Source of the DNA: a virus | Taxonomy: Duplodnaviria; Heunggongvirae; Uroviricota; Caudoviricetes | Length of the DNA stretch: 18,381 bases | Direction: 5' to 3' (one strand) | Virus record (IMG/VR): IMGVR_UViG_2734482784_000001 | Shown: in pieces, positions 1 through 18,381 of the stretch | Layout: each line of letters starts with the position of its first letter | Numbering within the stretch: position 1 is the stretch's first letter | Notes under the pieces: generated by a model | The model's input: only the letters and a program-made list of their open reading frames with translations | Told to the model about the DNA's origin: nothing | The model's database searches: none | Made by a program: the position numbers and the translations under genes

Positions 1-198
1 AATATAGGGGCAAATCCAGTGATGACCGGAGTTAACACCATCATGCGTGAATATCCAAATGGCGAAACAACACACCTCACTGTAATGGCTGCAGGGTTTC
101 CATCTCTGACCGGAGATCATAAAGTCATTTATGTAGCAGCGGATCGGCATGTAACTTCAGAAGAAATTCTGGAAGCAGCAATGAGACTCTTGAATTGA
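1..198 (+). CDS. 3' end of an unidentified ORF; start lies upstream of the window
   Basis: Frame 1 is open from position 1 to TGA at 196-198 (…TIMREYPNGETTHLTVMAAGFPSLTGDHKVIYVAADRHVTSEEILEAAMRLLN*). I do not recognise a family. It sits in the moron block upstream of the terminase gene. Confidence 0.35.
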   Translation, partial: NIGANPVMTGVNTIMREYPNGETTHLTVMAAGFPSLTGDHKVIYVAADRHVTSEEILEAAMRLLN

Positions 199-370
199 TT
201 TGATTCTAATGCATTGATAATAAATGATAATCATCTTTATCTGTTTGTGTGAAATTTAGACCGTCGTATGTTGATTATTGCGATGTTTCATCTTATCTTT
301 TATACGCTTGCTCCATATAATTGACACTACTGTGTACCAGGAAAGTCATAACAGACTAAAAGAGGAAATG

Positions 371-544
371 ATGAACATTGAAGAGTTAAAAACAAAAACA
401 GAAGCAGATATTTCTGAATATATAACAAAAAAAATCATTGAGCTTAAGAAAAAGACCGGGAAAGAAGTTACCAGTATCCAGTTTACTGCACGGGAAAAAA
501 TGACTGGTCTTGAAAGCTATGATATCAAGATTGATTTAATCTAG
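371..544 (+). CDS. gnsB: GnsA/GnsB-family small protein (57 aa)
   Basis: Tandem ATG at 368/371 preceded by AAAGAGGAAA. The 57-aa product MNIEELKTKTEADISEYITKKIIELKKKTGKEVTSIQFTAREKMTGLESYDIKIDLI matches my recollection of the GnsA/GnsB family (…TGKEV…FTAREKMTGLESYD…), whose gnsB member lies in the Qin prophage of K-12. The ORF-track start at 278 is an upstream extension with no ribosome-binding site. Confidence 0.7.
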   Translation: MNIEELKTKTEADISEYITKKIIELKKKTGKEVTSIQFTAREKMTGLESYDIKIDLI

Positions 545-606
545 TCTGTTTATAGCATTAGCATCAATTTCTCATCAGATGCTATTCAACAATACAAATT
601 ACCCAT

Positions 607-638
607 AAACCTCGTTTTTACGGGGTTTTGTTATATTT
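607..638 (+). terminator. candidate rho-independent terminator downstream of gnsB
   Basis: Arm AAACCTCG (607-614) pairs with CGGGGTTT (621-628) with one G-U wobble, loop TTTTTA, followed by a T-rich tail (629-638). Confidence 0.45.
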
Positions 639-839
639 AAACATTACCGAATAGGTATAAATCTCGATTGTCGATGGTATTGGTTGTGTGACAATACCTA
701 GTCTTTTCGGTATGCCTGAAGAGAATACAAACGACAGATTATGTAAGGGAAACGCGCTGAATCTTTCACTCTTTCATGCTGAGTGATTTGACGTTATATT
801 TTTAGCCGTAAGTGAAGAGCAAACGCATGGAGCGACAAA

Positions 840-1046
840 ATGCATAAAGATCAATACACTGATGCCCCCTCCCAGGAGCAGGTTCGTGTAAAAACTATGC
901 TTAATAGCACCATTTCGATGGGTTACCCGGATGTTGTAATTGCATGTATAGAACATCAAGTGTCTCTGGAAGCATTCAGGGCAATTGAGGCCGCGTTAGT
1001 AAAGCACGATAAGAATACGAAGGATTATTCCCTGGTGGTTGACTGA
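840..1046 (+). CDS. hypothetical small protein (68 aa), phage moron
   Basis: ATG at 840 with GGAG 7 nt upstream, 68 codons to TGA. Lies between gnsB and the terminase-like ORF. No family recognised; it does not resemble a lambda Nu1-type small terminase. Confidence 0.4.
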
Positions 1047-1081
1047 TCACCATAACTGCTAACCATTCTGACCATTTCACA

Positions 1082-1152
1082 AGTGACAGAGTCAATATCG
1101 TATTCTGTCACTGTCAGGCTAATACAGCAATGCAATTCAACTACAGCAATGC
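1082..1152. repeat. cluster of short inverted and direct repeats immediately upstream of the terminase-like ORF
   Basis: Perfect 9-bp inverted repeat AGTGACAGA (1082-1090) / TCTGTCACT (1104-1112) with a 13-nt spacer; tandem CTGTCA CTGTCA (1105-1116); 11-bp direct repeat TACAGCAATGC at 1123-1133 and 1142-1152. Confidence 0.5.
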
Positions 1153-1163
1153 CTCGTATTTAG

Positions 1164-3278
1164 GTGAATTTACAATATCGTCCAGTTCGGATGCCGGCTG
1201 CATTTCTGAAGATAAGGCATTTCGGTTCTCGTATTTTCCCCCTCATGCTCGTCAGTCCTGCGCGTAGTAAGAGACAGGACACTCACACTAATTTGTGTGG
1301 GCATGCTGTGCCTATGGGGGCAGGGAACTCAGTCCCGTGGGATCCGCTGGTGGCACCGTATGTTATTGAGCCTATGAACTGCCTGGCCTCGCGTGAATAC
1401 GACGCAGTGATATTTGTTGGCCCGGCACGAACCGGCAAGACTATCGGCCTGATTGACGGCTGGGTGATTTACAACGTGATTTGCGATCCTGCTGATATGC
1501 TGATCATTCAGATGACGGAGGAAAAAGCCCGCGAACACTCCAAAAAACGACTCGCCAGAACGTTTCGCGTCAGCCCGGAAGTGGTCAGTCGCCTGAGTCC
1601 GAACAAAAATGACAACAACGTTTATGACAGAACATTCCTTGCTGGCAACTACCTGAAAATCGGCTGGCCGTCAGTCAATATCATGTCTTCATCAGATTAT
1701 AAATGCGTGGCGCTGACGGATTATGACCGTTTTCCGGAAGATATTGATGGTGAGGGGGATGCCTTCTCTCTTGCCTCAAAACGTACCACCACATTTATGT
1801 CCAGTGGTATGACGCTGGTGGAGAGTTCCCCCGGCAGGGATGTGAAGGATGTGAAATGGCGACGGACTTCACCGCATGAGGCTCCACCAACCACGGGGAT
1901 CCTGTCGCTCTATAACCGTGGCGATCGCCGTCGCTGGTACTGGCCCTGTCCACACTGTGGTGAGTATTTTCAGCCCTGCGGCGATGTGGTTGCTGGTTTC
2001 CGTGATATTGCCGATCCTGTGCTGGCAAGTGAGGCGGCTTATATTCAGTGTCCTTCCTGTTCAGGACGGATTTTGCCTGAACAAAAACGCGAGCTGAACG
2101 GACGTGGGGTCTGGTTAGCCGCCAGTATCAATATCAAACCGGGCCATGATTATTACTTTTATATCCGCAGTGTGAACACCGTTGGCAAATCGGCATTCGT
2201 GGAGGCTGTTGGTCAGCCGAGTGATGACGCATCCGGCTATCTGGATTTTTTCAAAGGCGAGATAGGGAAAACCCATCTGGCTCAGGAGCTGTGGACGCAG
2301 ATTGATAACGGTCAGCTTGCGCCTGACCTGGCTGAAATCAGGACATCCATTACGGATGTCAGCAATGAAATCACACAGACCGTCAATAAGAAACTGGAAG
2401 ACCAGAGTGCAGCGATCCAGCAGATACAGAAGGTTCAGGTTGATACAAATAATAACCTGAACAGCATGTGGGCCGTGAAACTGCAGCAGATGCAGGACGG
2501 ACGCCTTTATATTGCGGGTATCGGTGCCGGTATTGAGAATACGCCAGCAGGAATGCAGAGTCAGGTGCTGCTGGCGGCAGACAGGATTGCGATGATTAAT
2601 CCTGCGAATGGCAACACAAAGCCGATGTTTGTTGGTCAGGGTGATCAGATATTCATGAACGACGTGTTCCTGAAACGCCTGACGGCTCCCACCATTACCA
2701 GCGGCGGTAATCCTCCTGCATTTTCCCTTACACCGGACGGGCGACTGACGGCGAAAAATGCGGATATCAGTGGCAGTGTGAATGCGAACGCCGGGACGCT
2801 CAACAATGTCACGATAAATGAAAACTGTCGGGTTCTGGGAAAACTGTCTGCGAACCAGATTGAAGGCGATCTCGTTAAAACAGTGGGCAAAGCTTTCCCC
2901 CGGGACTCCCGTGCACCGGAGCGGTGGCCATCAGGGACCATTACCGTCAGGGTTTATGACGATCAGCCGTTTGACCGGCAGATTGTTATTCCCACGGTGG
3001 CGTTTCGTGGCGCTAAACATGAGCGGGAGAATAACGATATTTATTCGTCATGCCGCCTGATAGTGAAGAAAAACGGTGCTGAAATTTATAACCGTACCGC
3101 GCTGGATAATACGCTGGTTTATACAGGTGTTATTGATATGCCTGCTGGTCGCGGTCACATGACGCTGGAGTTTTCGGTATCAGCGTGGCTGGTAAATGAC
3201 TGGTATCCCACAGCCAGTATCAGTGATTTGCTGGTTGTGGTGATGAAGAAATCCACAGCAGGTATCAGTATCAGCTGA
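1164..3278 (+). CDS. chimeric ORF: terminase large subunit (lambda gpA family) N-terminal region fused in frame to a lambda J-like host-specificity protein C-terminal region; deletion derivative
   Basis: Continuous 704-codon frame. Residues about 1-321 carry a Walker A box ([12 protein letters not shown]) and a CPHCG…CPSC zinc-ribbon-like motif as in lambda gpA. Residues from about 322 (nt about 2127) onward, starting near …[28 protein letters not shown] and including …[30 protein letters not shown]…, match the C-terminal third of lambda J as I recall it. The start is uncertain: GTG at 1164 (longest frame) or ATG at 1191, neither with a good ribosome-binding site. Stop TGA at 3276-3278. Confidence 0.7.
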
Positions 3279-3295
3279 ATTTTATAACCCATATG

Positions 3296-3322
3296 CGGGC
3301 GCCATTTCTGGCGCCTTTTTTA
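3296..3322 (+). terminator. rho-independent terminator after the chimeric ORF
   Basis: GGCGCC (3298-3303), loop ATTTCT, GGCGCC (3310-3315), then TTTTTT (3316-3321). Confidence 0.6.
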
Positions 3323-3345: not shown

Positions 3346-3945
3346 ATGCGTAAAGTTTGTGCAGCCATTTTGTCCGCAGCCATCTGTCTGGCCGTATCCG
3401 GTGCGCCTGCATGGGCGTCTGAGCAGCAGGCCACACTGAGCGCAGGGTATCTTCATGCCTCGACGAACGTTCCCGGTAGTGATGATCTGAACGGGATTAA
3501 CGTGAAATACCGTTATGAGTTTACGGACACGCTGGGGCTGATTACGTCATTCAGTTATGCCAACGCTGAAGATGAGCAAAAAACGCATTACAGCGATACC
3601 CGCTGGCATGAGGATTCCGTGCGTAACCGCTGGTTCAGCGTGATGGCGGGGCCGTCTGTGCGCGTGAATGAATGGTTCAGCGCGTATGCGATGGCGGGTG
3701 TGGCTTACAGCCGTGTGTCGACTTTCTCCGGGGATTATCTCCGCGTAACTGACAACAAGGGGAAAACGCACGATGTGCTGACCGGAAGTGATGACGGTCG
3801 CCACAGCAACACGTCTCTGGCGTGGGGGGCTGGCGTGCAGTTTAACCCGACCGAATCCGTGGCCATTGATATTGCTTATGAAGGTTCCGGCAGTGGTGAC
3901 TGGCGCACTGACGGTTTCATCGTGGGTGTCGGTTATAAATTCTGA
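3346..3945 (+). CDS. lom: Lom/Ail/PagC/OmpX-family outer-membrane beta-barrel protein
   Basis: ATG at 3346 with GAGAGG upstream. Signal peptide MRKVCAAILSAAICLAVSGAPAWA. The C-terminus …DIAYEGSGSGDWRTDGFIVGVGYKF matches lambda Lom as recalled, and it holds the lambda-like position between J and stf. Confidence 0.85.
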   Translation: MRKVCAAILSAAICLAVSGAPAWASEQQATLSAGYLHASTNVPGSDDLNGINVKYRYEFTDTLGLITSFSYANAEDEQKTHYSDTRWHEDSVRNRWFSVMAGPSVRVNEWFSAYAMAGVAYSRVSTFSGDYLRVTDNKGKTHDVLTGSDDGRHSNTSLAWGAGVQFNPTESVAIDIAYEGSGSGDWRTDGFIVGVGYKF

Positions 3946-3971: not shown

Positions 3972-3999
3972 AGCCCGCCGGTTCAGGCGGGTTTTTTTG
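3972..3999 (+). terminator. rho-independent terminator after lom
   Basis: CCCGCC (3974-3979), loop GGTTCA, GGCGGG (3986-3991), then TTTTTTT (3992-3998). Confidence 0.7.
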
Positions 4000-4009
4000 T
4001 GGGGGGAAT

Positions 4010-7000
4010 ATGGCAGTACGGATTTCAGGTGTACTGAAAGATGGCGCAGGTAAGCCGATACAAAACTGCACCATTCAGCTAAAGGCCAGGCGCAACAGCA
4101 CCACGGTGGTGGTGAACACAGTGGCCTCAGAAAACCCGGATGAAGCCGGGCGTTACAGCATGGACGTTGAGTACGGTCAGTACAGCGTTATTCTGTTGGT
4201 GGAAGGCTTCCCGCCATCGCATGCCGGGACCATCACCGTGTATGAAGACTCACAACCGGGTACGCTGAATGATTTTCTCGGTGCCATGACGGAGGATGAT
4301 GTCCGTCCGGAGGCACTGCGCCGCTTTGAACTGATGGTGGAAGAGGTGGCGCGTAACGCGTCCGCAGTGGCACAGAACACGGCAGCCGCGAAGAAGTCAG
4401 CCAGTGATGCCCGCACATCAGCCCGTGAGGCGGCAACCCATGCGACTGATGCTGCGGACTCCGCACGCGCAGCCAGCACGTCAGCCGGACAGGCCGCGTC
4501 GTCGGCTCAGTCAGCGTCTTCCAGCGCAGGAACGGCATCAACAAAGGCTACTGAAGCATCAAAAAGTGCTGCCGCTGCAGAGTCTTCAAAAAGCGCGGCA
4601 GCCACCAGTGCCGGTGCAGCGAAAACGTCAGAAACGAATGCCGCAGCATCACAAAAATCTGCGGCCACTTCTGCATCCACCGCGACCACGAAAGCGTCAG
4701 AAGCTGCCACCTCAGCCCGGGATGCGTCGGCTTCAAAAGTGGCGGCAAAATCATCAGAAACGAGCGCAGCCTCGAGCGCCGGCAGTGCAGCTTCCTCGGC
4801 AACGGCGGCAGGAAATTCCGCGAAGGCCGCAAAAACGTCTGAGATGAATGCGGATAACAGCGCACAGGCGGCAGCAGACTCACAAACTGCATCGGCAAAT
4901 TCCGCGACAGCAGCCAAAAAATCAGAAACCAACGCGAAAAATAGTGAGTCAGCAGCAAAGGTCAGCGAAACCAACGCTAAAGCGTCAGAGAACAAGGCGA
5001 AAGAATATCTCGACAAGGTCGGGGGACTCGTCAGCCCGATGACGCAATACGATTGGCCCGTTGTTACTGGTAATGAGTCTTTTTACATAAAGATCGCGAA
5101 ACTTTCCGATCCCGGAAGCAACAATTGCCATGTAACGCTAATGGTTACTAACGGCGGTGACTACGGCTCCCCTTACGGAAACATTGACTTTATCGAGATC
5201 TCGGCGCGCGGTCTGCCTTCTTCGCTTACTGCTGATAATGTATCTCGTTACCTGAGTATACGCCGTTTAGGGCCAACCGGGCTAATCAATAGCATGCAAA
5301 TGCGTTACGGCCTGGTTAAAGATGATGGCTTTATTGAGGTTTGGGCCTTCCAGCGTGCATTTATCAACGGCGCAAAGGTTGCGGTACTGGCGCAGACGGC
5401 ACGCACGGAATTATACATTCCAGACGGATTTGTTAAGCAAACCGCCGCGCCTTCTGGATATGTTGAAAGCCCCGTTGTAAGGATTTACGACCAGTTAAAC
5501 AAGCCGACTAAAGCAGATTTGGGTCTTTCTAATGCTATGCTTACAGGCGCTTTCGGTCTTGGCGGTAGCGGGATATCAACAAACGGCAAGATGAGCGATG
5601 TAGAGATCTTAAAAGCTCTGCGTGACAAAGGTGGTCATTTCTGGCGCGGTGATAAGCCGACCGGAAGCACGGCGACCATTTATAGCCACGGTTCTGGTAT
5701 ATTCTCGCGGTGCGGCGATACGTGGTCAGCGATCAATATCGACTACTCAACCGCGAAGATTAAGATCTATGCCGGCAACGATGCCCGGCTTAACAACGGG
5801 ACTTTTAGCATCAATGAGCTATACGGCTCGGCAAACAAGCCGTCGAAATCGGATGTTGGACTTGGCAACGTAACGAACGATGCGCAGGTAAAAAAAACCG
5901 GCGATACAATGACCGGTGACTTGACAATCAAAAAAGGTACACCGTCAGTCTTCCTGCGGGCAGACAGTGGAGTCACCGCTTTGCGGTTTTATACTGGCGA
6001 TAACACAGAGCGCGGCATAATCTATGCTGGTCCTAACACTGATTCGCTTGGCGAAGTTCGCATCAGGGCAAAGACAGCAGGGGGGACATCAGGAGGGGAT
6101 CTTGTTGTTCGTCACGACGGGAGGGTTGAAGTCCGTGATCTCACAGTAGCGTATAAAATTAAAAGCAGAACGATTGAGATTGCAAATACCGACACTGACT
6201 CATCGGCAACTACGCTCAGCATCTATGGAGTACAGCACACGCCGTTGGTTTTAACGCGTTCTGGTTCTTCTGAAAATGTGTCCATTGGGTTTAAGTTAGA
6301 CAACATGAACCCAAAGTATCTTGGAATTGATACTAATGGGGATCTGGCTTTTGGTGAGAGTCCTGATCAGAAACAAAACAGCAAATTGATCACGCAAGCG
6401 AAACTCGACAAGGGATTAACGATTGGTGGTCAACTGGCTTTCAAAGGTACGACAGCGTTTTCAGCCGTTGCTACGTTCAGTGCCGGGATAGCAGGAGCCA
6501 TCGAGCCGGAAAACATTGACGGCCAGACGGTTAATCTTAACAACCTGACCATCATCAAGTCAGATGCCGGGGCAGTTAAATACTATATTTGTCCATCCTC
6601 TGCAGGTGGTGCAAATATTACCAATAAGCCTGACGGCATAGCCGGTAACTTTTTGCTCCGTGTAGAGTCGACTCGTAAGGTTAGGGATTCAGATTATGCG
6701 AACATGCAAACGCTGATTAACAGCGACACAAAACGTATATACGTTCGCTTTGTTGTTAATGGAAACTGGACAGCGTGGAGTCAGGTTGTTGTTTCCGGAT
6801 GGAATCAGGATATAACTGTCAGGTCGTTAACCACATCTAGTCCGGTAAAATCTGGCGGAGGGCGAATTGATGTCCTTGGAAGCACGTCAGACTATAGCAA
6901 AATGGATTGCTTTGTACGTGGGTTTGATAGCACCGGTAATTCTCTCGCGTGGGCGTTGGGTTCATCAGCCGGCGTAAGTAAGATGCTGTCGCTAAAAAAT

Positions 7001-7786
7001 TTCTTTAGCGGAGCTGAGATACTGTTAAATGGTAATGACGGCACGGTTCAACTCAAAACAGGTGCTGTTAACGGGGCTACAGCGCAGGCGCTCACTATCA
7101 ACAGGAATGAGGTTAACTCAACTGTTGATTTAACCCTTACAAAACAATCAGGGACTGGCAATCGTTTTGTTTTACAGAACTCAGGTAATGCAGAACTACC
7201 GTTTTCTGTCAGGGTGTGGGGTTCCAGTACTCGACAAAACGTTTTTGAGGTTGGCACGTCTGCTGCGTATCTGTTTTATGCGCAAAAAACGTCAGCAGGC
7301 CAGTTGTTTGATGTAAATGGCGCTATTAATTGCACAACGCTGAATCAGTCATCAGACCGCGACCTTAAAGACGATATTCTCGTTATCAGCGACGCGACGA
7401 AAGCAATCCGTAAAATGAACGGATACACCTACACGCTCAGGGAAAACGGGATGCCTTATGCTGGCGTTATTGCACAGGAAGTAATGGAGGCGATACCAGA
7501 AGCTGTGGGATCGTTTACTCATTATGGTGAAGAGTTGCAAGGTCCGACCGTTGACGGCAACGAGCTACGCGAAGAAACGCGCTATCTTAATGTTGACTAC
7601 GCCGCCGTGACGGGCTTACTTGTTCAGTTCGCCCGTGAAACAGATGATCGCGTTACCGCGCTGGAAGAGGAAAACACAACGCTACGTCAAAATCTGGCAA
7701 CAGCAGACACCCGGATCAGCACTCTGGAAAATCAGGTAAGCGAACTGGTTGCACTTGTCCGGCAGTTAACAGGAAGCGAACATTGA
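4010..7786 (+). CDS. stf: mosaic side tail fibre: lambda Stf-like N-terminal region with Ala/Ser-rich repeats, divergent distal region, C-terminal intramolecular-chaperone (peptidase S74-like) domain
   Basis: GGGGGAA then ATG at 4010. N-terminus MAVRISGVLKDGAGKPIQNCTIQLKARRNSTTVVVNTV… matches lambda Stf as recalled. Central region carries fibre-type motifs (…KKTGDTMTGDLTIKKG…). The C-terminus (…SDRDLKDDILVISDATKAIRKMNGYTYT…RYLNVDYAAVTGLLVQF…ALEEENTTLRQNL…) resembles the self-cleaving chaperone domain of endosialidase or T5-type fibres. Stop TGA at 7784-7786. Confidence 0.85.
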   Translation: MAVRISGVLKDGAGKPIQNCTIQLKARRNSTTVVVNTVASENPDEAGRYSMDVEYGQYSVILLVEGFPPSHAGTITVYEDSQPGTLNDFLGAMTEDDVRPEALRRFELMVEEVARNASAVAQNTAAAKKSASDARTSAREAATHATDAADSARAASTSAGQAASSAQSASSSAGTASTKATEASKSAAAAESSKSAAATSAGAAKTSETNAAASQKSAATSASTATTKASEAATSARDASASKVAAKSSETSAASSAGSAASSATAAGNSAKAAKTSEMNADNSAQAAADSQTASANSATAAKKSETNAKNSESAAKVSETNAKASENKAKEYLDKVGGLVSPMTQYDWPVVTGNESFYIKIAKLSDPGSNNCHVTLMVTNGGDYGSPYGNIDFIEISARGLPSSLTADNVSRYLSIRRLGPTGLINSMQMRYGLVKDDGFIEVWAFQRAFINGAKVAVLAQTARTELYIPDGFVKQTAAPSGYVESPVVRIYDQLNKPTKADLGLSNAMLTGAFGLGGSGISTNGKMSDVEILKALRDKGGHFWRGDKPTGSTATIYSHGSGIFSRCGDTWSAINIDYSTAKIKIYAGNDARLNNGTFSINELYGSANKPSKSDVGLGNVTNDAQVKKTGDTMTGDLTIKKGTPSVFLRADSGVTALRFYTGDNTERGIIYAGPNTDSLGEVRIRAKTAGGTSGGDLVVRHDGRVEVRDLTVAYKIKSRTIEIANTDTDSSATTLSIYGVQHTPLVLTRSGSSENVSIGFKLDNMNPKYLGIDTNGDLAFGESPDQKQNSKLITQAKLDKGLTIGGQLAFKGTTAFSAVATFSAGIAGAIEPENIDGQTVNLNNLTIIKSDAGAVKYYICPSSAGGANITNKPDGIAGNFLLRVESTRKVRDSDYANMQTLINSDTKRIYVRFVVNGNWTAWSQVVVSGWNQDITVRSLTTSSPVKSGGGRIDVLGSTSDYSKMDCFVRGFDSTGNSLAWALGSSAGVSKMLSLKNFFSGAEILLNGNDGTVQLKTGAVNGATAQALTINRNEVNSTVDLTLTKQSGTGNRFVLQNSGNAELPFSVRVWGSSTRQNVFEVGTSAAYLFYAQKTSAGQLFDVNGAINCTTLNQSSDRDLKDDILVISDATKAIRKMNGYTYTLRENGMPYAGVIAQEVMEAIPEAVGSFTHYGEELQGPTVDGNELREETRYLNVDYAAVTGLLVQFARETDDRVTALEEENTTLRQNLATADTRISTLENQVSELVALVRQLTGSEH
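4370..5010 (+). repeat. low-complexity Ala/Ser/Thr/Lys-rich imperfect tandem repeats inside stf
   Basis: Reiterated motifs such as AAKTSETNA, AAKKSETNAKNSESAAKVSETNAKASENKAKE and SASTATTKASEAATSA at the protein level, with correspondingly GC-rich repetitive DNA. This region generates several long spurious ORFs in other frames. Confidence 0.6.
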
Positions 7787-7960: not shown

Positions 7961-8057
7961 GGTAAAACATATAAATTCTATAATTAGATGTATCTTTCCA
8001 TTTACGGCAAGGAAGGGGGCTTGGAAGACGTAAAGCATCTCACACCGAGATTATTTT

Positions 8058-8648
8058 TTATATGTCAGGTGTCTGAAGTTTTGCTTTGGCTCTTAAAATG
8101 GTTTGCCGCGAGGTTTTGAATTCCCGGGCAATGGCACTTATACTTACACCTGACTTAATTCGTTCGAATACCACCTGTTTCTGTTCTTCATTTAACACAG
8201 GTGGTCGACCAAAACGTTTCCCTGCGCCGCGGGCTCTTACTATCCCGGAATGAGTGCGTTCAAGTAAAAGGTCTCGTTCAAATTCAGCGACTGCTGAAAT
8301 TACGTGCATCATCATTTTTCCTGTTGGACTGGTCAGGTCAATGCCCCCCAATGCTAAGCAATGCACTCTGATACCTGTTTCGGTCAGTTGTTCCACTGTT
8401 TTCCTGATATCCATTGCATTACAACCAAGGCGATCCAGTTTTGTCACAATCAATTGATCACCACATTTCAGGCGAGCAAGCAACCGGTTAAAACCAGGAC
8501 GCTCACTGGTTGCTGCTGAGCCGCTAATGTGTTCTTCGATTATTTGCTGAGGTTTGATTTTAAAACCTGCACTTTCGATTTCCCGGCGTTGATTTTCGGT
8601 GGTCTGATCCAGCGTTGATATCCGACAGTAAGCAAAAATTCGAGACAT
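8058..8648 (-). CDS. pinQ: serine recombinase of the DNA-invertase family (PinQ/PinR type), 196 aa
   Basis: ATG at 8648-8646 on the minus strand, TAA at 8060-8058. Product [31 protein letters not shown]…[45 protein letters not shown] has the resolvase/invertase N-terminal catalytic domain and a C-terminal helix-turn-helix. It converges on the stf and tfa remnant, as pinQ does relative to tfaQ in K-12. Confidence 0.9.
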
Positions 8649-8964
8649 AGTGAGACTCTATACGAAATTGGTGTTCATATCATAATGCATCTCAGAAAAT
8701 AATTTTGATTATTTTTGTGCATATTTGTATGTACACGTTCGAAAATAAACGAATGCGTATGCAACCCCGTAACTTTGGTGAGACCCAAAATCGATTTTGT
8801 GAAAAATGGCTTTAACTCGGTTTGTTTTTCGAGTTCCGGGCGGACTCAAGGAAGAAGAATAGTGTTGCGTGTTATTTTAACCAGATTTCAAGTTGTTTGG
8901 TCGTGGAAAAGTGGAGCAAAATGTTGTTAAAGTGGAAAAATGATAAAAAAGTAAGTTTATTATA

Positions 8965-9198
8965 TTACATTTTACCATTTAAATTTTGGTTGTCTTTAAG
9001 AACTGATATCGCTGTTTGTAATAATTCTTTGTTATCCAGCCATGATTTTTTCTTTATGTTTCCTTCAATGTAATCAAGCAATGTTCTGGTATTGATAGGT
9101 CTTCCCTGTTTTGCTACTTCCACTACAGCATCCCCTAGGATAATTCTTACTTCAGGAAGCTGCGCAGGGAACCACTTTAGGGTGTCTTTTTATTTCAT
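8965..9198 (-). pseudogene. ydfK: ydfK/ynaE-family prophage cold-shock gene with an ochre stop at codon 3
   Basis: The minus strand reads ATG AAA TAA AAA GAC ACC CTA AAG TGG… giving M K * K D T L K W F P A Q L P E V R I I L G D A V V E V A K Q G R P I N T R T L L D Y I E G N I K K K S W L D N K E L L Q T A I S V L K D N Q N L N G K M *. This is a 77-codon YdfK-like frame whose third codon (plus-strand 9190-9192) is TAA. The ORF is absent from the six-frame track because of this stop. Confidence 0.7.
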
Positions 9199-9959
9199 GA
9201 AGATATTCCTTAAAATATTATTGATTTTCATTGCGATATTGTATGTCTGATTCAGGATATGTTGACTTATACATCGGTTTTGTCTGGGTTATTGGATATG
9301 CCAATCCCTAATTTTATTAGGGCATGACTAAAAATGCTGAATATGATAAGGAGAGAAGTGATTATCAGTATGCTGTTCATATAGCCTCGAATTAGTAATG
9401 TGTTATATATGATATAGTTGACAATTTTATCTTGGGTGTTCTTAAAGTTCGTAGATAAACATTGTCGTTTCAGGTATACAGGAATGCTAACAGGTGGCGG
9501 CAAAAATCAGGCGGTTTATGGCGCAATCTGAAGTGGCAACTGCAAACTATCTTATGCAGAGACTCTACACGGATTGGGTTTAAAAGTATACATAGATAAC
9601 AGTTTTTATCTGAAGAAGAAAAATATCAAGGTGATATAGCCTATATGCCTTTGATGTGGAGGAATGAATGTGATGGGAGTGATGTATCTGAATAGTTGAA
9701 AAACCGCAGACACACCTTATGCAAGAACGTGCTGCGGTTGGCTGGTAAATTTTTCGATAGTGCGAGTATTGAATGATTTCCAGCCGTTATTGATTTTACG
9801 CGTAAATCCATGAAAAAACTACTTATCTGTTGGGGAGTTTTTTGGGGCATATATGGGACAGAAATAGGCCCCAGATAGACACTGAGATCGAACTTAGGAT
9901 GCTTTTAAAAAAATGCAACTATCTGAAAAAACCTAGAAAACGCCAAGGAAACCACAGGA

Positions 9960-9990
9960 TGGGAAAAAACACCTGTGAATTATGGATTTC
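9960..9990. other. approximate prophage right-end junction with the chromosome, inside ydfJ
   Basis: The ydfJ frame opens only at ATG 9982; two codons upstream is an in-frame TGA (9976-9978), and the expected N-terminal part of the transporter, including its first helix, is missing. Upstream DNA is AT-rich phage-type sequence. The exact crossover point cannot be set without the other prophage end. Confidence 0.4.
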
Positions 9991-11265
9991 CAGTTATATT
10001 CGCTCGGCGCAGCGTTAGTGTTTCATGAAATATTTTTTCCTGAATCATCAACGGCAATGGCGTTAATTCTGGCAATGGGAACCTACGGTGCAGGTTATGT
10101 GGCGCGTATTGTCGGAGCATTTATTTTCGGCAAAATGGGCGACAGAATAGGGCGTAAAAAAGTGCTCTTTATTACCATCACCATGATGGGGATCTGTACC
10201 ACCTTAATTGGTGTGTTACCGACCTATGCACAGATTGGTGTTTTTGCCCCCATCTTGCTGGTGACGCTGCGTATTATTCAGGGATTGGGTGCAGGTGCGG
10301 AAATTTCCGGTGCCGGTACGATGCTGGCGGAATATGCGCCAAAAGGTAAGCGCGGAATTATCTCCTCATTTGTGGCTATGGGAACTAACTGCGGAACTTT
10401 AAGCGCAACGGCAATCTGGGCCTTTATGTTCTTCATTCTCAGTAAAGAGGAACTGCTGGCGTGGGGATGGCGTATACCGTTCCTGGCGAGCGTTGTCGTG
10501 ATGGTCTTTGCTATCTGGTTGCGTATGAATCTGAAAGAAAGCCCGGTTTTTGAGAAGGTTAACGACAGCAACCAACCGACAGCAAAACCTGCACCTGCTG
10601 GTAGCATGTTCCAGAGCAAATCCTTCTGGCTGGCAACAGGGCTGCGTTTTGGTCAGGCGGGTAACTCAGGTTTAATTCAGACTTTCCTTGCGGGCTATTT
10701 AGTGCAGACGTTATTGTTTAACAAAGCAATTCCAACATATGCATTGATGATCAGTTCGATTCTCGGCTTTATGACCATTCCGTTCCTTGGTTGGTTATCC
10801 GATAAAATTGGTCGCCGGATCCCGTATATTATTATGAATACCTCCGCGATTGTGCTGGCATGGCCAATGCTTTCTATCATCGTAGATAAAAGCTATGCCC
10901 CGAGCACCATTATGGTTGCACTGATTGTGATTCATAACTGTGCGGTGCTGGGATTATTTGCTCTGGAAAATATTACCATGGCAGAAATGTTCGGCTGTAA
11001 AAACCGCTTTACCCGGATGGCTATTTCTAAAGAAATTGGTGGTCTTATCGCTTCCGGTTTTGGTCCTATCCTGGCGGGTATTTTCTGCACCATGACGGAA
11101 TCCTAGTATCCGATCGCCATTATGATCATGGCATATTCAGTGATTGGTTTAATCTCTGCGCTGAAAATGCCAGAAGTGAAAGACCGTGATTTAAGTGCGC
11201 TGGAAGACGCCGCGGAAGATCAACCGCGTGTTGTAAGAGCTGCGCAACCTTCCAGAAGTCTGTAA
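9982..11265 (+). pseudogene. ydfJ: MFS (metabolite:H+ symporter family) transporter gene, 5'-truncated by prophage insertion and interrupted by an in-frame amber codon
   Basis: A 374-codon frame (MDFQLYSLGAALVFHEIFFPESS…GDRIGRKKVL…FCTMTES) stops at TAG 11104-11106. The same frame continues for 52 further sense codons (YPIAIMIMAYSVIGLISALKMPEVKDRDLSALEDAAEDQPRVVRAARPSRSL) to TAA 11263-11265. 374+1+52 = 427 codons, the size I recall for K-12 YdfJ. Confidence 0.8.
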
Positions 11266-11274
11266 ATCCTCAAT

Positions 11275-11305
11275 CCCTTCTCTTACCGGAGAGGGGATTT
11301 TTATT
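11275..11305 (+). terminator. rho-independent terminator after ydfJ
   Basis: CCCTTCTC (11275-11282), loop TTACCG, GAGAGGGG (11289-11296) with one G-U wobble, then ATTTTTATT. Confidence 0.6.
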
Positions 11306-11353
11306 CATATAACAAAACATGTAGCTTGCCATATTTATATTTAAGGAATTGTT

Positions 11354-12814
11354 ATGGGAAATAATTTGTTATCAGCAAAAGCGACACTCCCTGTTTATGA
11401 TCGTAATAACCTGGCCCCAAGAATTGTTCATTTAGGCTTTGGTGCATTTCACCGTGCGCATCAGGGCGTGTATGCCGATATTCTTGCTACAGAACATTTC
11501 AGTGACTGGGGATATTATGAGGTCAACTTAATCGGCGGCGAACAGCAAATTGCCGATTTACAGCAGCAAGATAATCTTTATACCGTTGCGGAAATGTCGG
11601 CCGATGCGTGGACGGCTCGCGTCGTTGGTGTCGTTAAAAAAGCCTTGCACGTACAGATGGATGGCTTAGAAACCGTGTTGGCTGCGATGTGTGAACCGCA
11701 AATCGCGATTGTCTCTCTGACAATCACCGAAAAAGGGTATTTCCACTCTCCGGCGACCGGACAGTTAATGCTCGATCACCCGATGGTCGCTGCCGACGTG
11801 CAAAATCCCCACCAGCCGAAAACAGCAACAGGGGTGATTGTTGAGGCGCTGGCTCGCCGTAAAGCGGCAGGACTTCCCGCATTTACCGTCATGTCATGTG
11901 ACAACATGCCAGAAAACGGTCATGTTATGCGTGACGTTGTCACTTCCTACGCGCAAGCCGTTGATGTAAAACTGGCACAATGGATCGAAGATAACGTGAC
12001 TTTCCCATCAACAATGGTGGACCGTATTGTGCCCGCAGTGACAGAGGATACGCTGGCGAAAATCGAACAACTTACCGGTGTGCGCGATCCTGCTGGCGTT
12101 GCCTGTGAACCTTTCCGCCAGTGGGTAATAGAAGATAATTTTGTTGCCGGACGTCTGGAATGGGAAAAAGCGGGAGCAGAACTGGTTAGCGATGTACTGC
12201 CTTATGAAGAGATGAAGTTGCGCATGCTCAACGGCAGTCATTCATTCCTGGCGTATTTGGGTTATCTTGCCGGATATCAGCACATTAATGACTGTATGGA
12301 AGATGAACATTATCGTCATGCGGCGTATGGCTTGATGTTGCAGGAACAAGCGCCGACGCTGAAAGTGCAGGGCGTTGATTTGCAGGATTACGCTAACCGA
12401 TTAATTGCACGCTATAGCAACCCGGCGTTACGTCATCGAACCTGGCAGATTGCGATGGATGGCAGCCAGAAATTGCCACAGCGGATGTTGGATTCTGTTC
12501 GCTGGCATCTGACGCATGACAGCAAGTTCGATCTGCTGGCGCTGGGCGTCGCGGGTTGGATGCGTTATGTCGGTGGTGTTGATGAACAGGAAAATCCGAT
12601 AGAAATCAGTGACCCACTGTTACCTGTTATTCAGAAGGCTGTACAAAGTAGTGCCGAAGGGAAAGCGCGCGTCCAGTCATTGCTGGCGATTAAGGCGATC
12701 TTTGGTGATGATTTGCCAGCCAATAGCTTGTTTACTGCAAAAGTGACGGAAGCGTACTTGTCTTTATTAGCGCATGGCGCGAAAGCGACCGTGGCAAAAT
12801 ATTCCGTGAAGTAA
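11354..12814 (+). CDS. ydfI: mannitol-dehydrogenase-family oxidoreductase (long-chain polyol or mannonate dehydrogenase-like), 486 aa
   Basis: AAGGAA then ATG at 11354. N-terminal dinucleotide-binding signature …[18 protein letters not shown]…. Length and synteny match K-12 ydfI. Confidence 0.9.
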
Positions 12815-12842
12815 AAAAAGCAATGCCGCCATCGGCGGCATT
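12813..12842. terminator. shared hairpin between convergent ydfI and ydfZ; the U-tract is on the ydfZ (minus) side
   Basis: AATGCCGCC (12822-12830), loop ATC, GGCGGCATT (12834-12842). An A-run at 12813-12820 on the plus strand becomes a U-run after the hairpin for the minus-strand ydfZ transcript. Confidence 0.55.
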
Positions 12843-12849
12843 CACACGC

Positions 12850-13053
12850 TTAGTTCATGCCGAGACGAATCAGGTCCAGTGGTGCCAGTTTCTCTTCACA
12901 ACCTTCAACAACTACGGTTTTTCCGCGGCGGATTTGCTCAGCGGTCAGACCTTCAGTATCAATCGACAGGATCTTGCCAGTGTGACCGGTGCCGCTAACC
13001 ATAACACGGCTGCCAGTGGTGATTGCGTTACGGTTACGATCGTAGGTCGTCAT
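12850..13053 (-). CDS. ydfZ: small protein YdfZ (putative selenium-binding protein), 67 aa
   Basis: ATG at 13053-13051 with AAGGAG upstream on the minus strand; [67 protein letters not shown]; TAA stop. Size and synteny match K-12 ydfZ. Confidence 0.85.
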
Positions 13054-13134
13054 AGGTGTTTTCTCCTTTCTGATTTACAGTCGAAGCCCACGTAACGGGC
13101 GCAATATAAATACTCCTGTCGAGTGAAATATTTT

Positions 13135-13148
13135 TTGTTTTTGATCAA
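13135..13148 (-). promoter_or_regulatory. candidate FNR site (TTGTT-N4-ATCAA) of a class II-type ydfZ promoter
   Basis: TTGTTTTTGATCAA at 13135-13148 matches the FNR consensus TTGAT-N4-ATCAA in 9 of 10 half-site positions. AT-rich -10-like hexamers (TATTTA, TATATT on the minus strand, plus-strand 13103-13114) lie at the right distance for a site centred near -41.5. ydfZ is a known FNR-activated gene. Confidence 0.4.
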
Positions 13149-13229
13149 GCTCACATCTTTTTTGATGCATGCATGAGCCATAAGGCGGGGGAAAAGACTC
13201 TCACCCCGGATGGGATGAGAGGAAATGAA

Positions 13230-13916
13230 TTACTCTTCGCTAAACCAGTCGCTATTTTCCTGGCGGATCTGGCGCACGGATTCGCTGATTTCCTGCAAAT
13301 GTTGCGTCATTGCACGTTCTACCGCATCGCCATCACGTTTTTGCAGGGCAGAGAAAATATCAAGATGCTGGCGTAACAGCATTTCTGGTGGAGAAACGTG
13401 GTCGAAACTCATATAGCGCACGCGATCAACGGTCGCTTTCAGGTTCTCAATGGTATCCCACGCCAGTTGACAGTCGGCAATCTGCGTCAGGAGTTGATGG
13501 AAGTTGTCATCAAGTTCAAAAAAATCATCCAGTTGCTTGCGCTCAATGGCAATGCGTTGCTGGTGAAGATTTTGTTCCAGTTGGTAGCACTGGCTTTCGG
13601 TAATCATGCTCGCCGCCCGACGCGCCACCGCGCACTCAATGGCCTGACGGATAAAACTGCCGTTGCGCACCTGGGCCATGGAAATTTTGTTGACGTAGCT
13701 GCCACGCTGCGGACGAATTTGAATCAGGCCGTTTTCCGCCAGTTTAATAAAGGCTTCACGAACCGGCTGGCGTGACACATTGAAACGAACAGAAACTTCT
13801 TTTTCCGACAACGGTGTGCCTGGTGCAATCAGGCAATGGACAATGTCGCGACGAAGAATACGATAAATCTGCTGATTGACAGGCTGTGTGGGATTAAGTT
13901 GCGTTTCGACGGTCAT
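13230..13916 (-). CDS. rspR: GntR-family (FadR-type) transcriptional regulator, 228 aa
   Basis: ATG at 13916-13914, TAA at 13232-13230. N-terminal winged helix-turn-helix (…[39 protein letters not shown]…) and C-terminal ligand-binding domain. Size and synteny match K-12 ydfH (rspR). Confidence 0.85.
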
Positions 13917-13978
13917 TCGTTCTTGCTTGTGAGTGAGTTAACTGCATGAGTCTACCACTTTTTTGTGACAAGCAATAA

Positions 13979-13996
13979 CCCGGCAGTTACGCCGGG
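13979..13996 (-). terminator. weak hairpin downstream of ydfG
   Basis: CCCGGC (13979-13984), loop AGTTAC, GCCGGG (13991-13996). On the minus strand it is followed by a moderately U-rich stretch. No clean U-tract. Confidence 0.35.
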
Positions 13997-14004
13997 TATA
14001 AAAA

Positions 14005-14751
14005 TTACTGACGGTGGACATTCAGTCCGGCATAGCTTTGGGTAACCGGCATCATTTCCAGGGTATTGATATTGACGTGAGCAGGCAGCGTTGACACCCA
14101 CCAGACGGCTTCGCTGACATCTTCTGGCGTCAATGCAACGGTATTTTGATAGGTTTTTTCCACTTTACCGTCATCGCCTTTAAAGCGGACATTGGAAAAC
14201 TCGGTGCCACCCACCAGACCCGGCTCGATGTCGGTGACGCGCACCGCCGTACCATGCAGATCCGTACGCAGATTCAGGCTAAACTGACGAACAAACGCTT
14301 TCGTCGCACCGTAAACGTTACCACCGGCATACGGCCAGCTACCTGCCGTTGAGCCAATGTTAATAATATGACCATGATTACGTTCAACCATACCCGGTAA
14401 GACGGCGCGCGTCATATATACCAGGCCTTTATTGTTGGTATCAATCATCGTTTCCCAGTCTTCAACGCTGGCTTTATGCGCAGGCTCCATGCCCAACGCC
14501 AGGCCGGCATTATTTACCAGGATATCAATATTGCTCCACTCGGCAGGGAGCGATGCCAGCATCTCTTCAATAGCGGCGCGGTTGCGAACGTCCAGTTGGG
14601 CGATATACAGATTATCTCCCAGTTCGTCTTTTAACTCCTGCAACCGTTCCTGACGACGGCCAGTGGCGATAACTTTATGCCCTTGTTGAATAAAACGACG
14701 AGTAATGCATTCACCAAAACCTGCCGTTGCTCCAGTTACTAAAACGATCAT
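14005..14751 (-). CDS. ydfG: NADP-dependent short-chain dehydrogenase/reductase (3-hydroxy acid / malonic semialdehyde reductase), 248 aa
   Basis: SDR glycine motif at the N-terminus (MIVLVTGATAGFG). ATG at 14751-14749 with GAGGA 8 nt upstream. The ORF-track start at 14766 is a TTG-initiated 5-codon extension. TAA at 14007-14005. Confidence 0.9.
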   Translation of the reverse strand: MIVLVTGATAGFGECITRRFIQQGHKVIATGRRQERLQELKDELGDNLYIAQLDVRNRAAIEEMLASLPAEWSNIDILVNNAGLALGMEPAHKASVEDWETMIDTNNKGLVYMTRAVLPGMVERNHGHIINIGSTAGSWPYAGGNVYGATKAFVRQFSLNLRTDLHGTAVRVTDIEPGLVGGTEFSNVRFKGDDGKVEKTYQNTVALTPEDVSEAVWWVSTLPAHVNINTLEMMPVTQSYAGLNVHRQ

Positions 14752-14887
14752 CTCACTGTTCCTCAACGCTTTTGTGTGTCAATAACATAGCACGGGATGC
14801 TTAAGAGCGGGTAATACTGGATTGCAAGATTGCACTCCGTTATCAGTAAGCCTACGCTATGGAACACCTCGCGTTCAGGAGAAGAAA

Positions 14888-16933
14888 ATGACAACAATGA
14901 ATCCTTTCCTTGTGCAAAGCACACTGCCGTATCTGGCTCCTCATTTTGATCAAATTGCCAATCATCACTATCGCCCGGCATTCGATGAGGGAATGCAGCA
15001 AAAGCGGGCAGAAATTGCTGCCATCGCGCTTAACCCGCAAACGCCTGATTTCAACAATACTATTCTGGCACTGGAACAAAGCGGAGAATTACTTACCCGC
15101 GTTACCAGCGTCTTTTTTGCGATGACTGCGGCGCATACCAATGATGAATTACAGCGTCTTGATGAACAGTTTTCCGCTGAACTGGCGGAACTGGCTAATG
15201 ATATCTATCTGAACGGTGAATTATTCGCGCGGGTAGATGCTGTCTGGCAGCGCCGTGAATCCCTGGGGCTTGATAGTGAATCCATCCGCCTGGTGGAGGT
15301 GATTCATCAACGTTTTGTCCTTGCCGGAGCCAAACTTGCGCAAGCTGATAAAGCAAAATTAAAAGTACTGAATACAGAAGCTGCGACACTGACCAGTCAG
15401 TTTAACCAGCGATTACTGGCAGCAAATAAATCCGGCGGTCTGGTTGTGAACGATATCGCGCAGCTGGCAGGAATGAGTGAGCAAGAGATTGCGCTGGCGG
15501 CAGAGGCGGCTCGCGAGAAAGGTCTGGATAACAAATGGCTGATTCCGCTGCTGAATACCACCCAACAACCGGCGCTTGCCGAGATGCGCGATCGTGCGAC
15601 GCGTGAAAAACTGTTTATTGCGGGCTGGACGCGAGCGGAAAAAAATGATGCCAATGATACCCGCGCTATCATTCAACGTCTGGTAGAGATTCGCGCACAG
15701 CAGGCGAAACTGCTTGGTTTTCCTCATTATGCCGCATGGAAAATCGCCGATCAGATGGCAAAAACACCTGAAGCAGCACTTAACTTTATGCGGGAAATTG
15801 TTCCAGCGGCGCGTCAACGTGCGAGCGATGAATTAGCCTCCATACAGGCGGTTATTGATAAGCAGCAGGGCGGGTTTAGCGCGCAGCCGTGGGACTGGGC
15901 ATTTTATGCCGAACAGGTACGGCGGGAGAAATTTGATCTTGATGAGGCGCAGCTCAAGCCATATTTTGAATTAAACACGGTGTTGAATGAAGGTGTATTC
16001 TGGACCGCGAATCAGCTCTTCGGTATTAAGTTTGTCGAACGTTTTGATATTCCTGTCTACCATCCTGACGTTCGTGTGTGGGAAATTTTTGATCATAATG
16101 GCGTGGGACTGGCGTTATTTTACGGTGATTTCTTCGCCCGTGATTCAAAAAGCGGCGGTGCATGGATGGGCAATTTTGTTGAGCAATCAACGCTTAATGA
16201 AACGCATCCGGTAATTTATAACGTCTGCAATTATCAGAAACCCGCTGCCGGTGAGCCTGCGTTGTTACTCTGGGATGATGTAATAACCTTATTCCATGAA
16301 TTTGGTCATACGCTGCACGGCCTTTTTGCCCGCCAGCGTTATGCCACGCTTTCCGGCACCAACACGCCGCGTGATTTTGTCGAATTTCCGTCGCAAATCA
16401 ACGAACACTGGGCAACGCATCCGCAGGTATTCGCTCGCTACGCCCGGCATTATCAGAGCGGGGCAGCAATGCCTGACGAACTGCAACAGAAAATGCGTAA
16501 TGCCAGCCTGTTCAACAAAGGGTATGAGATGAGCGAACTGCTTAGCGCCGCACTTCTCGATATGCGCTGGCATTGCCTGGAAGAAAACGAAGCAATGCAG
16601 GATGTCGATGATTTTGAATTGCGGGCGCTGGTGGCGGAAAATATGGATCTTCCTGCTATACCGCCACGCTATCGCAGCAGTTATTTCGCCCATATTTTTG
16701 GTGGCGGATATGCTGCAGGTTATTACGCTTATCTGTGGACGCAAATGTTGGCCGATGATGGTTACCAGTGGTTTGTTGAGCAGGGCGGATTAACGCGTGA
16801 AAATGGGCAGCGTTTTCGCGAGGCGATCCTTTCCAGAGGTAACAGCGAAGATCTGGAACGCCTGTATCGACAATGGCGCGGTAAGGCTCCTCAGATTATG
16901 CCGATGCTGCAACATCGTGGCTTGAACATATAA
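14888..16933 (+). CDS. dcp: peptidyl-dipeptidase Dcp (zinc metallopeptidase, M3 family), 681 aa
   Basis: AGGAG then ATG at 14888 (MTTMNPFLVQSTLPYLAPHFDQI…). HEXXH zinc motif (LFHEFGHTLHG). The ORF-track start at 14822 is a TTG-initiated upstream extension. TAA at 16931-16933. Confidence 0.9.
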   Translation: MTTMNPFLVQSTLPYLAPHFDQIANHHYRPAFDEGMQQKRAEIAAIALNPQTPDFNNTILALEQSGELLTRVTSVFFAMTAAHTNDELQRLDEQFSAELAELANDIYLNGELFARVDAVWQRRESLGLDSESIRLVEVIHQRFVLAGAKLAQADKAKLKVLNTEAATLTSQFNQRLLAANKSGGLVVNDIAQLAGMSEQEIALAAEAAREKGLDNKWLIPLLNTTQQPALAEMRDRATREKLFIAGWTRAEKNDANDTRAIIQRLVEIRAQQAKLLGFPHYAAWKIADQMAKTPEAALNFMREIVPAARQRASDELASIQAVIDKQQGGFSAQPWDWAFYAEQVRREKFDLDEAQLKPYFELNTVLNEGVFWTANQLFGIKFVERFDIPVYHPDVRVWEIFDHNGVGLALFYGDFFARDSKSGGAWMGNFVEQSTLNETHPVIYNVCNYQKPAAGEPALLLWDDVITLFHEFGHTLHGLFARQRYATLSGTNTPRDFVEFPSQINEHWATHPQVFARYARHYQSGAAMPDELQQKMRNASLFNKGYEMSELLSAALLDMRWHCLEENEAMQDVDDFELRALVAENMDLPAIPPRYRSSYFAHIFGGGYAAGYYAYLWTQMLADDGYQWFVEQGGLTRENGQRFREAILSRGNSEDLERLYRQWRGKAPQIMPMLQHRGLNI

Positions 16934-16944
16934 ACACCACCAAT

Positions 16945-16974
16945 GGCTGGCCTGGAGATATCGCCAGGCCAGCC
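16945..16974. terminator. bidirectional hairpin between convergent dcp and ydeJ
   Basis: Perfect 11-bp stem GGCTGGCCTGG (16945-16955) / CCAGGCCAGCC (16964-16974) with an 8-nt loop AGATATCG. U-tracts on both sides are weak. Confidence 0.55.
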
Positions 16975-16977
16975 TGG

Positions 16978-17496: not shown

Positions 17497-17770
17497 TGTT
17501 TTTTGTCCACGCTATTATATGTAAAGGTGATTTGCTTTTCTGTATGCTCGTCCAATATAATAATTTTCAAACATATAAATCCGATTATTCTGAAAATATG
17601 TTTAAGACTCTTCAATCTTCTTAACCTTAGTGAGTTAAATTCTCTGAATATTTGACAGCTAGTGGGCTGATTTTAAATGCCTTATAACAATTGGCAGTAT
17701 TCTTATTTGGCAATTATAAAAATAGCAACCAGACTTAATAAGTCAAACCAAACGCAATTAAGGAGTTAGT

Positions 17771-18163: not shown

Positions 18164-18381
18164 AAATAAATTAGCCTGATGGCCTGAACTACTGGGCCAT
18201 TAGGGTATTGGGTTATGCTATTTGTCATCCTTTTATTTACGATAATGCAGAGGTGATTTACAGAATTAAACACTTTTTTATCCGCTGATTTTGTTTTAAA
18301 TCACAATGTTATCTCAGAGATGACTCATAACTTCGGATTTCTATGAAAATATTGACGTAATTTTGGGTAATGACTCCAACT

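Follow-up and report, generated by a model that had tools for sequence, protein, structure and literature searches.

Introduction

The closest described relatives of the locus analysed here are cryptic prophages of the Qin type in E. coli. In Qin of strain K-12 the entire head and tail block is likewise missing, and nohQ and stfQ are pseudogenes. Three groups of Qin variants, from 20AR0300 and PK8276, from H2 and CH4784, and from E. coli B REL606, share with our locus the chromosomal site, the cargo genes and the loss of the morphogenesis block. However, their breakpoints are different. In 20AR0300 and PK8276, codons 1-507 of the large terminase (TerL) are joined to the tail fibre gene J at about codon 814 (TerL507/J814 in L001; a slash marks a join throughout), and in H2 and CH4784 a small-terminase fragment and a 339-bp TerL fragment are followed by J from codon 345. 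By the annotated coordinates, the TerL/J joins of both variants (L001; L002 and L004) are out of frame and the pieces carry pseudogene annotations. REL606 has an IS3 at the join, which leads directly into J codon 726.

Two further relatives were compared with our locus. The prophage of E. coli EC93 (L003, NZ_CP061329) is an almost intact lambdoid prophage and was used as the reference for deletions. It has the order DUF1441, 700-aa TerL, portal, protease/capsid fusion, tail genes, tape measure, tip genes, 1137-aa J, lom and stf. Its DUF1441, TerL ... J, lom, stf order is the same as ours and its TerL codons 36-305 are 100% identical to our locus, but it retains the full 15.8 kb between the two genes and the C-terminus of its J is another allele, with about 87% DNA identity near the join. 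The protein P0002 (GCA_949767045.1, GCA_017151175.1) has the same TerL305/J774 junction, and its DNA is 100% identical over 1308-3278 in the same context (gnsB, hypothetical gene, lom, stf, pinQ). It differs in keeping a DUF1441 gene, TerL codons 1-35 and the native start, all of which were lost from our locus in an 888-bp deletion.

The more distant comparison is with lambda gpA and gpJ (8iyk, 8xcj), which belong to the same Pfam families as the two parts of our open reading frame (ORF); the J part aligns to gpJ 838-1131, the receptor-binding-domain region. However, our TerL is only a family relative of gpA, its small-subunit partner being DUF1441 and not Nu1, and neither part is a complete protein. 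The DNA studied, called the window below, is the whole 18,381-nt stretch of the IMG/VR record IMGVR_UViG_2734482784_000001. A sequence-only reading had described within it a chimera of the ATPase half of a lambda gpA-type terminase and the C-terminal third of J, made by one deletion of the head and tail block.

Results

The locus. Downstream of a pinQ-type invertase, the window continues into chromosomal ydfJ, ydfI, rspR, ydfG and dcp, and over positions 8000-18381, from pinQ through these five genes, it matches many E. coli chromosomes at about 100% identity. This identity of the flank marks the window, to judge from its sequence, as the right end (ydfK/pinQ-ydfJ end) of a Qin-like cryptic E. 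coli prophage together with its chromosomal flank. The locus is Qin-like because the gnsB and 68-aa-gene cargo fixes it: ynfN, gnsB, lom, stf and pinQ lie beside ydfJ-ydfI-rspR-ydfG-dcp in relatives of this type (L001, L002, L004, L023), and the annotated neighbours in L001, L002 and L004 are ynfN, gnsB, cspI, rzpQ and rrrQ. The features of the window are collected in Table 1. The lom gene is the normal gene 3' of J, and this order was kept in L001-L006. In the carrier L006, the side tail fibre gene has a 10-nt gap and is called as two ORFs (709 and 513 aa) instead of one.

Table 1. Features of the window, with positions counted from its first nucleotide.
Feature	Position	Strand	Basis or remark
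Upstream cargo: gnsB (inside ORF 278-544) and 68-aa hypothetical gene (840-1046)	278..1046	+	Pfam GnsAB_toxin
5' extension of the mechanical ORF, 48 codons	1164..1307	+	formerly non-coding, not terminase
Junction 1, GTG	1308..1310	+	joins the ends of the 888-bp deletion
TerL fragment, codons 36-305	1308..2117	+	nucleotide match to L003, Pfam
Junction 2, TerL codon 305 and J codon 774	2111..2117	+	three-way comparison
C-terminal 386 codons of J and stop	2118..3278	+	Pfam, L011 alignment, phmmer
Terminator-like hairpin followed by a T run, just 3' of the J stop	3297..3316	+	consensus scan, pattern match only
lom (Ail/Lom outer-membrane protein), intact	3346..3945	+	Pfam Ail_Lom, E 3e-127, full length
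Side tail fibre gene, 1258 aa, intact	4010..7786	+	Pfam phage_tail_N, C-terminal Peptidase_S74 chaperone domain
pinQ-type serine invertase, prophage end	8058..8648	-	Pfam Resolvase and HTH_7

The frame and its domains. The 704-codon frame (1164-3278, + strand) is present and open throughout. It has the terminase motifs on which the chimera had been proposed, plus a second CPSC motif: Walker A GPARTGKT and the CPHC/CPSC motifs are all carried by the TerL fragment. Pfam found GpA_ATPase (PF05876) at ORF residues 54-317 (E 1.6e-71, profile 2-247 of 247) and nothing ahead of residue 54. The nuclease domain PF20454, recorded in full-length (700-aa) TerL proteins, had no Pfam match in the ORF, and TerL codons 306-700 are deleted in the window. 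The TerL half gave no sequence match to a solved structure with phmmer. Its assignment to a gpA-type terminase thus holds at the level of the GpA Pfam family and not for lambda gpA itself, the small subunit being of the DUF1441 type. Likewise, the N-terminal half is terminase in its TerL fragment only; the 48 codons before it come from formerly non-coding DNA.

The second half is J codons 774-1159, with the tail-tip fibre and receptor-binding domains preceded by a remnant of the second Ig domain. Ig_J_second (PF24489) is partial (ORF residues 307-363, profile 47-104 only) and is followed by Phage_Tail_Tip (PF09327; residues 417-545, E 1.4e-30) and the receptor-binding Ig_GpJ_C (PF12421; residues 574-704, E 2.7e-39). 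The N-terminal approximately 770 residues of J, the tail-tip builders, are absent. With phmmer, the J part matched lambda gpJ structures, for example 8iyk_J residues 838-1131 (E 3e-128).

Junction 2. The TerL fragment is 100% identical over 810 nt to L003 20001-20810, within the TerL CDS (19896-21998). The J alignment begins at window 2111, equal to L003 36630 within J (34318-37731), and the reading frame is kept. The two halves thus map colinearly to separate L003 genes 15.8 kb apart, and these separate alignments, with the Pfam matches, bear out a chimera of the TerL ATPase and the C-terminal third of J arising by deletion of the head and tail block. We placed the join by comparing the window with TerL of L003 and with J of L011, an intact J of the window's allele type. 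It lies between 2117 and 2118, inside the interval 2110-2150 given before, and leads from TerL codon 305 to J codon 774 of 1159. At the join, the TerL parent reads ...GGGGTCTGGTTA/CGGG and the J parent ...GTACTGGATA/GCCGCC. The exact bases common to both are only TA (2116-2117), or loosely six of seven (CTGGTTA and CTGGATA). The 15.8 kb missing in comparison with L003 agrees with the separation of 15-18 kb predicted for an intact genome. It runs from the nuclease half of the terminase to the first two-thirds of J, with portal, protease/capsid, tail tube, tape measure and the remaining tail-tip genes in between. Alignment to an intact relative, which had been proposed as a check, in this way gave both breakpoints and the TA at junction 2.

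Junction 1. The event had been pictured as single, and this was incomplete: a second deletion, of 888 bp, had been missed, and with it the loss of the small-terminase gene and of the native start. Window 16-1310 aligns to L001 3001-4294 and to L006 3923-5217, a stretch which in these relatives sits between the 68-aa hypothetical gene and the DUF1441 gene, and window 1308-2117 maps to L001 5183-5992. The deleted stretch is L006 5218-6105; lost with it were the small-terminase (DUF1441) gene in full, TerL codons 1-35 and 289 nt of DNA further upstream. The gene and these codons are present in L001, L003 and L006, and in intact relatives the lost TerL start directly abuts the small-terminase stop. 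The parents in L006 read GCTGTG/ATGTCC and GCGGGTG/CCTATGG and the window GCTGTG/CCTATGG, with GTG common to both. ORF codons 1-48 are former intergenic DNA which the 888-bp deletion made continuous with the frame, and these first 144 nt are open fortuitously. No AGGAGG-like ribosome-binding sequence precedes the candidate starts at 1164, 1191, 1245 and 1314, and a consensus scan upstream of the ORF gave no sigma-70-like promoter on the + strand. The two joins, with their TA and GTG, contain no extra bases, mobile element or long repeat, as in short-homology illegitimate deletion.

Spread and age. Neither junction was found by exact-junction search in 5,426 complete RefSeq E. coli genomes or in the GTDB species-representative genomes; the fusion allele was found only through a search of protein collections. 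The parent allele P0002, a 691-aa TerL(1-305)::J(774-1159) with the native start, is indexed in 36 collection blocks and comes from dozens of public E. coli assemblies (drafts from NCBI, ENA and Logan, and one 4.59-Mb chromosome). Six carriers were examined; each has the DUF1441 gene directly abutting the fusion, and the 2076-nt fusion gene is identical among them. The 888-bp deletion aside, 0-5 mismatches over about 9 kb separate the window from the six carriers. Logan also contains the window's doubly deleted form, as P0003 (695 aa), with a single residue changed. P0001 (654 aa), considered as another copy of the window's form, was rejected: its contig keeps the DUF1441 gene and its short length is due to an annotated internal start. 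These comparisons of sequence point to the 15.8-kb deletion as probably one recent event in one lineage, with the window as a younger derivative.

Discussion

In our reading, to which we give a probability of about 0.9, the ORF is a pseudogene of the ordinary kind, a fusion left by two deletions in a Qin-like lambdoid prophage of E. coli that is decaying. The first, an illegitimate recombination that joined TerL codon 305 to J codon 774, took out 15.8 kb; the frame was kept by chance, giving a 691-aa product with its native start abutting the end of the small-terminase gene. In the sub-lineage of the window, a second deletion, of 888 bp between two GTG triplets, then spliced non-coding DNA onto the frame and took away the native start. 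The remaining ORF would be a non-functional relic, still open only since both events are very recent, so that too little time has passed for stops to accumulate. Its product, if translated at all, would be cytoplasmic and without packaging or tail function; low-level translation is possible, for example by read-through from a prophage late promoter upstream of the window. The crypticity of the prophage had been attributed to this deletion. It is indeed one reason but not the sole one, as the prophage bears further lesions.

The open frame had been called unusual, and the event recent or its product tolerated or used. Recent origin is favoured by the 100% identity of TerL over 810 nt and by the six identical carriers, and no sign of use was seen. 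An open frame is not very unusual, as a deletion preserves the frame with a chance of one in three; in two other Qin variants the frame is lost at the join. In other genomes of the protein collections, in-frame partners of the TerL N-terminus are Lom, Stf, a minor tail protein, capsid and even chromosomal ydfI, a range to be expected of deletion by-products. Most of the alternative fusions with contigs looked up were single assemblies. The in-frame status fits a one-in-three chance, and the TerL fusions look like the expected third of the deletions that start in TerL.

We weighed whether the fusion could be a domesticated functional protein, for example a dominant-negative decoy against superinfecting lambdoid phages, in which packaging or tail assembly would be poisoned by the terminase ATPase part or by the trimeric receptor-binding part of J. 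Several kinds of in-frame TerL::J fusions do exist among public E. coli proteins, the parent allele retains the small-terminase gene and the native start, and both retained parts include complete Pfam domains. However, the window no longer has the start codon, the small-terminase gene or the TerL N-terminus, which in lambda gpA binds the small subunit, and this speaks against use. Furthermore, the allele is clonal with zero diversity, most of the alternative junctions looked up occur in single assemblies, the sister Qin variants are out of frame, and TerL is equally fused to unrelated partners, so that a functional protein appears very improbable. Among the variants and carriers compared, nothing suggestive of selection for the fusion product was found. 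The few variants of the fusion (P0004-P0006, n=3) all have amino-acid changes, and with three variants these changes do not point to constraint. Since the carriers are essentially without sequence variation, selection on the ORF is not measurable either way. An assembly artefact, with two prophage regions mis-joined, would be favoured by the several similar lambdoid prophages per E. coli genome (median of three matching places), which make assembly harder. It is scarcely credible here: independent assemblies from NCBI, ENA and Logan share the identical junction with the 4.59-Mb chromosome, the two nucleotides common at the join are too little for a repeat-driven mis-join, and both flanks are colinear with the Qin locus.

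Taken as a deletion-fusion pseudogene, the fusion documents one recent step in the decay of Qin-type prophages and matters little in itself. Long chimeric prophage ORFs of this kind are deletion scars annotated as ordinary proteins. The fusion sequence is in fact already public under generic names, and such scars appear as 'terminase large subunit family protein' or 'DUF1983 domain-containing protein'.

The position of the breakpoints may be of wider interest. We mapped the junctions of other chimeras and then scanned IMG/VR and JGI metagenomes for breakpoint flanks. The J endpoint /GCCGCCAGTATC..., with TA before it, was joined at the same nucleotide (in one case three bases off) to at least five other left partners. 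Two of them lie in TerL, at codon 427 (L012) and, with the three-base offset, at codon 330 (L013). The others are capsid position 24430 of L003 (L027), a site near codon 40 of a class II holin on a metagenome contig (L136) and, near codon 15, a candidate gene which we take from its N-terminal sequence to be a lambda-type Nu1 (L028). The joins at J773 occur in at least three different J alleles and are thus independent events. On the other side, L045 has the left side of J773 joined just upstream of a tail-fibre-assembly remnant and appY; from its appY-like ORF we read L045 as a DLP12-like prophage. The scan for GGCGCTGTACTGGATAH gave mostly chance 16-mer matches, and only L045, L048 and L050 were J-related. 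TerL codon 427 (...CAGGTA/) had as partners capsid 24929, J773, J822, Lom codon 17, a site that appears to be near the end of the tape measure gene and one without assignment. Capsid 24430/1, capsid 24928/9 and J907 each serve as left and as right endpoint. Only 2-6 nt are common to both sides at these joins, and an end of the GGTA or GnTA type, or one like it, is seen at many of the sites. Roughly estimated, about 48 endpoints spread over 18 kb should give less than one coincidence, and more than 20 were counted. The recurrence of the J breakpoint, of TerL codon 427 and of the other sites suggests a deletion hot-spot mechanism. In an unbiased sample of 80 IMG/VR loci with this TerL, five late-region deletions were seen, one of them from hub to hub; such hubs are not the only route, because the other four are at unique positions.

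That J 773/774 (...CTGGATA/GCCGCC...) is part of a small network of breakpoints, used repeatedly and from both sides by deletions in lambdoid late operons, is a tentative proposal, to which we give slightly less than even odds. TerL 305, TerL 427, L003 capsid 24430 and 24928, and J 814, 822 and 907 would be further members, most of them with a GGTA/GnTA-type end and 2-3 nt in common; in independent genomes and different alleles they are joined, at the same nucleotide, to one another and to sites outside the network. If true, such a network implies a sequence-directed or element-anchored deletion that channels prophage decay, with scarless loss of insertion sequences as one candidate. If morphogenesis blocks are repeatedly lost through the same few nucleotides, decay is partly a directed mutational process and not random erosion, and in that case the responsible enzyme or element could be identified.

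Scarless IS loss could also replace spontaneous slippage or end joining as the cause of both deletions of the window. The breakpoints would then be former IS sites, from which an element was lost with adjacent DNA in the manner of the IS-excision enhancer (IEE). IEE-dependent excision removes elements of the IS3, IS1 and IS30 families and takes from a few nucleotides to more than 40 kb of adjacent DNA with it, at microhomologies of 2-6 nt (PMC9943667; bioRxiv 10.1101/2023.06.07.543989). A former IS site would explain how one nucleotide (J773, T427) came to be joined to many partners in both directions. The locus is also rich in IS: REL606 and PK8276 carry an IS3 at window position 1167-1170, REL606 has its IS3-anchored deletion to J codon 726, and IS1 and IS2 are nearby in BKQ37E (IS1 near J860). 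However, the IS3 site is 140 nt off junction 1, and in the handful of genomes examined no IS lies exactly at TerL305, TerL427 or J773. Pattern scans for non-native bases beside J773 and T427 detected no IS ends. We consider this origin of the two deletions unlikely, and keep the short-homology deletions of the pseudogene reading as the preferred one.

Several other causes of the hubs were tried. Local hairpins were rejected, as the DNA fold energies of 30-nt windows at 21 breakpoints were unremarkable, at percentiles of 0.08-1.0 with a median near 0.6. Chi sites were rejected too, with zero within J and those of TerL off the breakpoints. A recognition motif at a set distance, of the kind used by type IIS and type III restriction enzymes, was rejected because no 5- or 6-mer stood at a constant offset in more than three of ten sites. 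Pin/Hin-type crossover sites were unsupported, the breakpoint contexts, judged by eye, being unlike the consensus AAACC-nn-GGTTT. Secondary sites of an integrase do not explain the TA joins of TerL305, TerL427 and J773. An integrase-bearing element uses TerL codons 328-335 as its attachment site, and this site could be related to the TerL330/J772 join, at which CTGGAT is common to both sides.

Recurrent breakpoints in J and in the terminase gene

The J breakpoint of the window (2111-2120, between codons 773 and 774 of this tail tip attachment protein) was not confined to one deletion, as it recurred at the same nucleotide, or at most 3 nt away, in the loci L012, L013, L027, L028, L045 and L136. 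At least six different partners, from independent isolates and one metagenome, were joined at this point. The joins were spread over several J alleles, and the site served as the right endpoint in some of them and as the left endpoint in others. For example, in L045 (13200-14933) J was retained up to codon 773, beyond which lay unrelated sequence, a short remnant of a tail-fibre-assembly gene, and appY; from its downstream ORFs, we take this prophage to be DLP12-like. Similar reuse was observed at TerL codon 427, at positions 24430 and 24928 in the capsid region of the intact EC93 prophage (L003), and at J codons 814, 822 and 907. At the recurrent joins, the bases common to both parents were mostly "TA" alone, after a G-rich context.

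The same TerL N-terminus was also found in frame with other partners in the collection proteins P0145, P0133, P0142, P0153 and P0139. These partners included the chromosomal ydfI (mannitol dehydrogenase family), Lom (at two positions) and Stf, and a further one which we read as a tape-measure fragment. Deletions starting in TerL can extend beyond the prophage end into the chromosome.

IS3 and a putative mobile element near and within the terminase gene

Both E. coli B REL606 and strain PK8276 carry an IS3 exactly at window positions 1167-1170, at the opening GTG of the mechanical ORF (1164-3278); the window itself has no IS at this site. The far end of the IS3 in REL606 adjoins J codon 726, which is a classical case of an IS-anchored deletion, with loss of the block that the window also lacks. 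Many E. coli also have a TerL truncated at codon 331 (protein P0123, 393 collection blocks), a form not seen in the window. The block beyond this boundary opens with a gene for a 412-aa tyrosine integrase and a Bro-N gene, and the boundary sequence is TTCTGGATG(T/G)AGGGT. This block looks like a mobile element for which the terminase gene in prophages of this type serves as attachment site.

In L015 (region 2396-3001), the fusion was annotated by NCBI as a 654-aa protein (P0001) starting at the internal Met38. The small-terminase (DUF1441) gene is still present upstream of it, with 110 nt between both genes. The shorter form may reflect either damage to TerL codons 1-37 or simply the start chosen in annotation.

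Downstream genes

Since a terminator-like hairpin follows the stop codon of J as well as that of lom, lom is bracketed by such structures. In L006, which carries the 691-aa parent fusion, the side tail fibre gene has an internal 10-nt gap, and in L006, L007 and L010 two called ORFs (709 aa, and 513 or 493 aa) replace it.

Coordinates of the boundary in TerL and of features downstream of the fusion
Feature	Position	Description
TerL codons 328-335 boundary	about 3985-4160 in L016, L017, L018	sequence switches to integrase-bearing block
Terminator-like hairpin	3297-3316	strong, with T run; after J stop
Terminator-like hairpin	3972-3993	strong, with T run; after lom stop
Side tail fibre gene	4010-7786	1258 aa, C-terminal S74 chaperone domain; intact in window and L008
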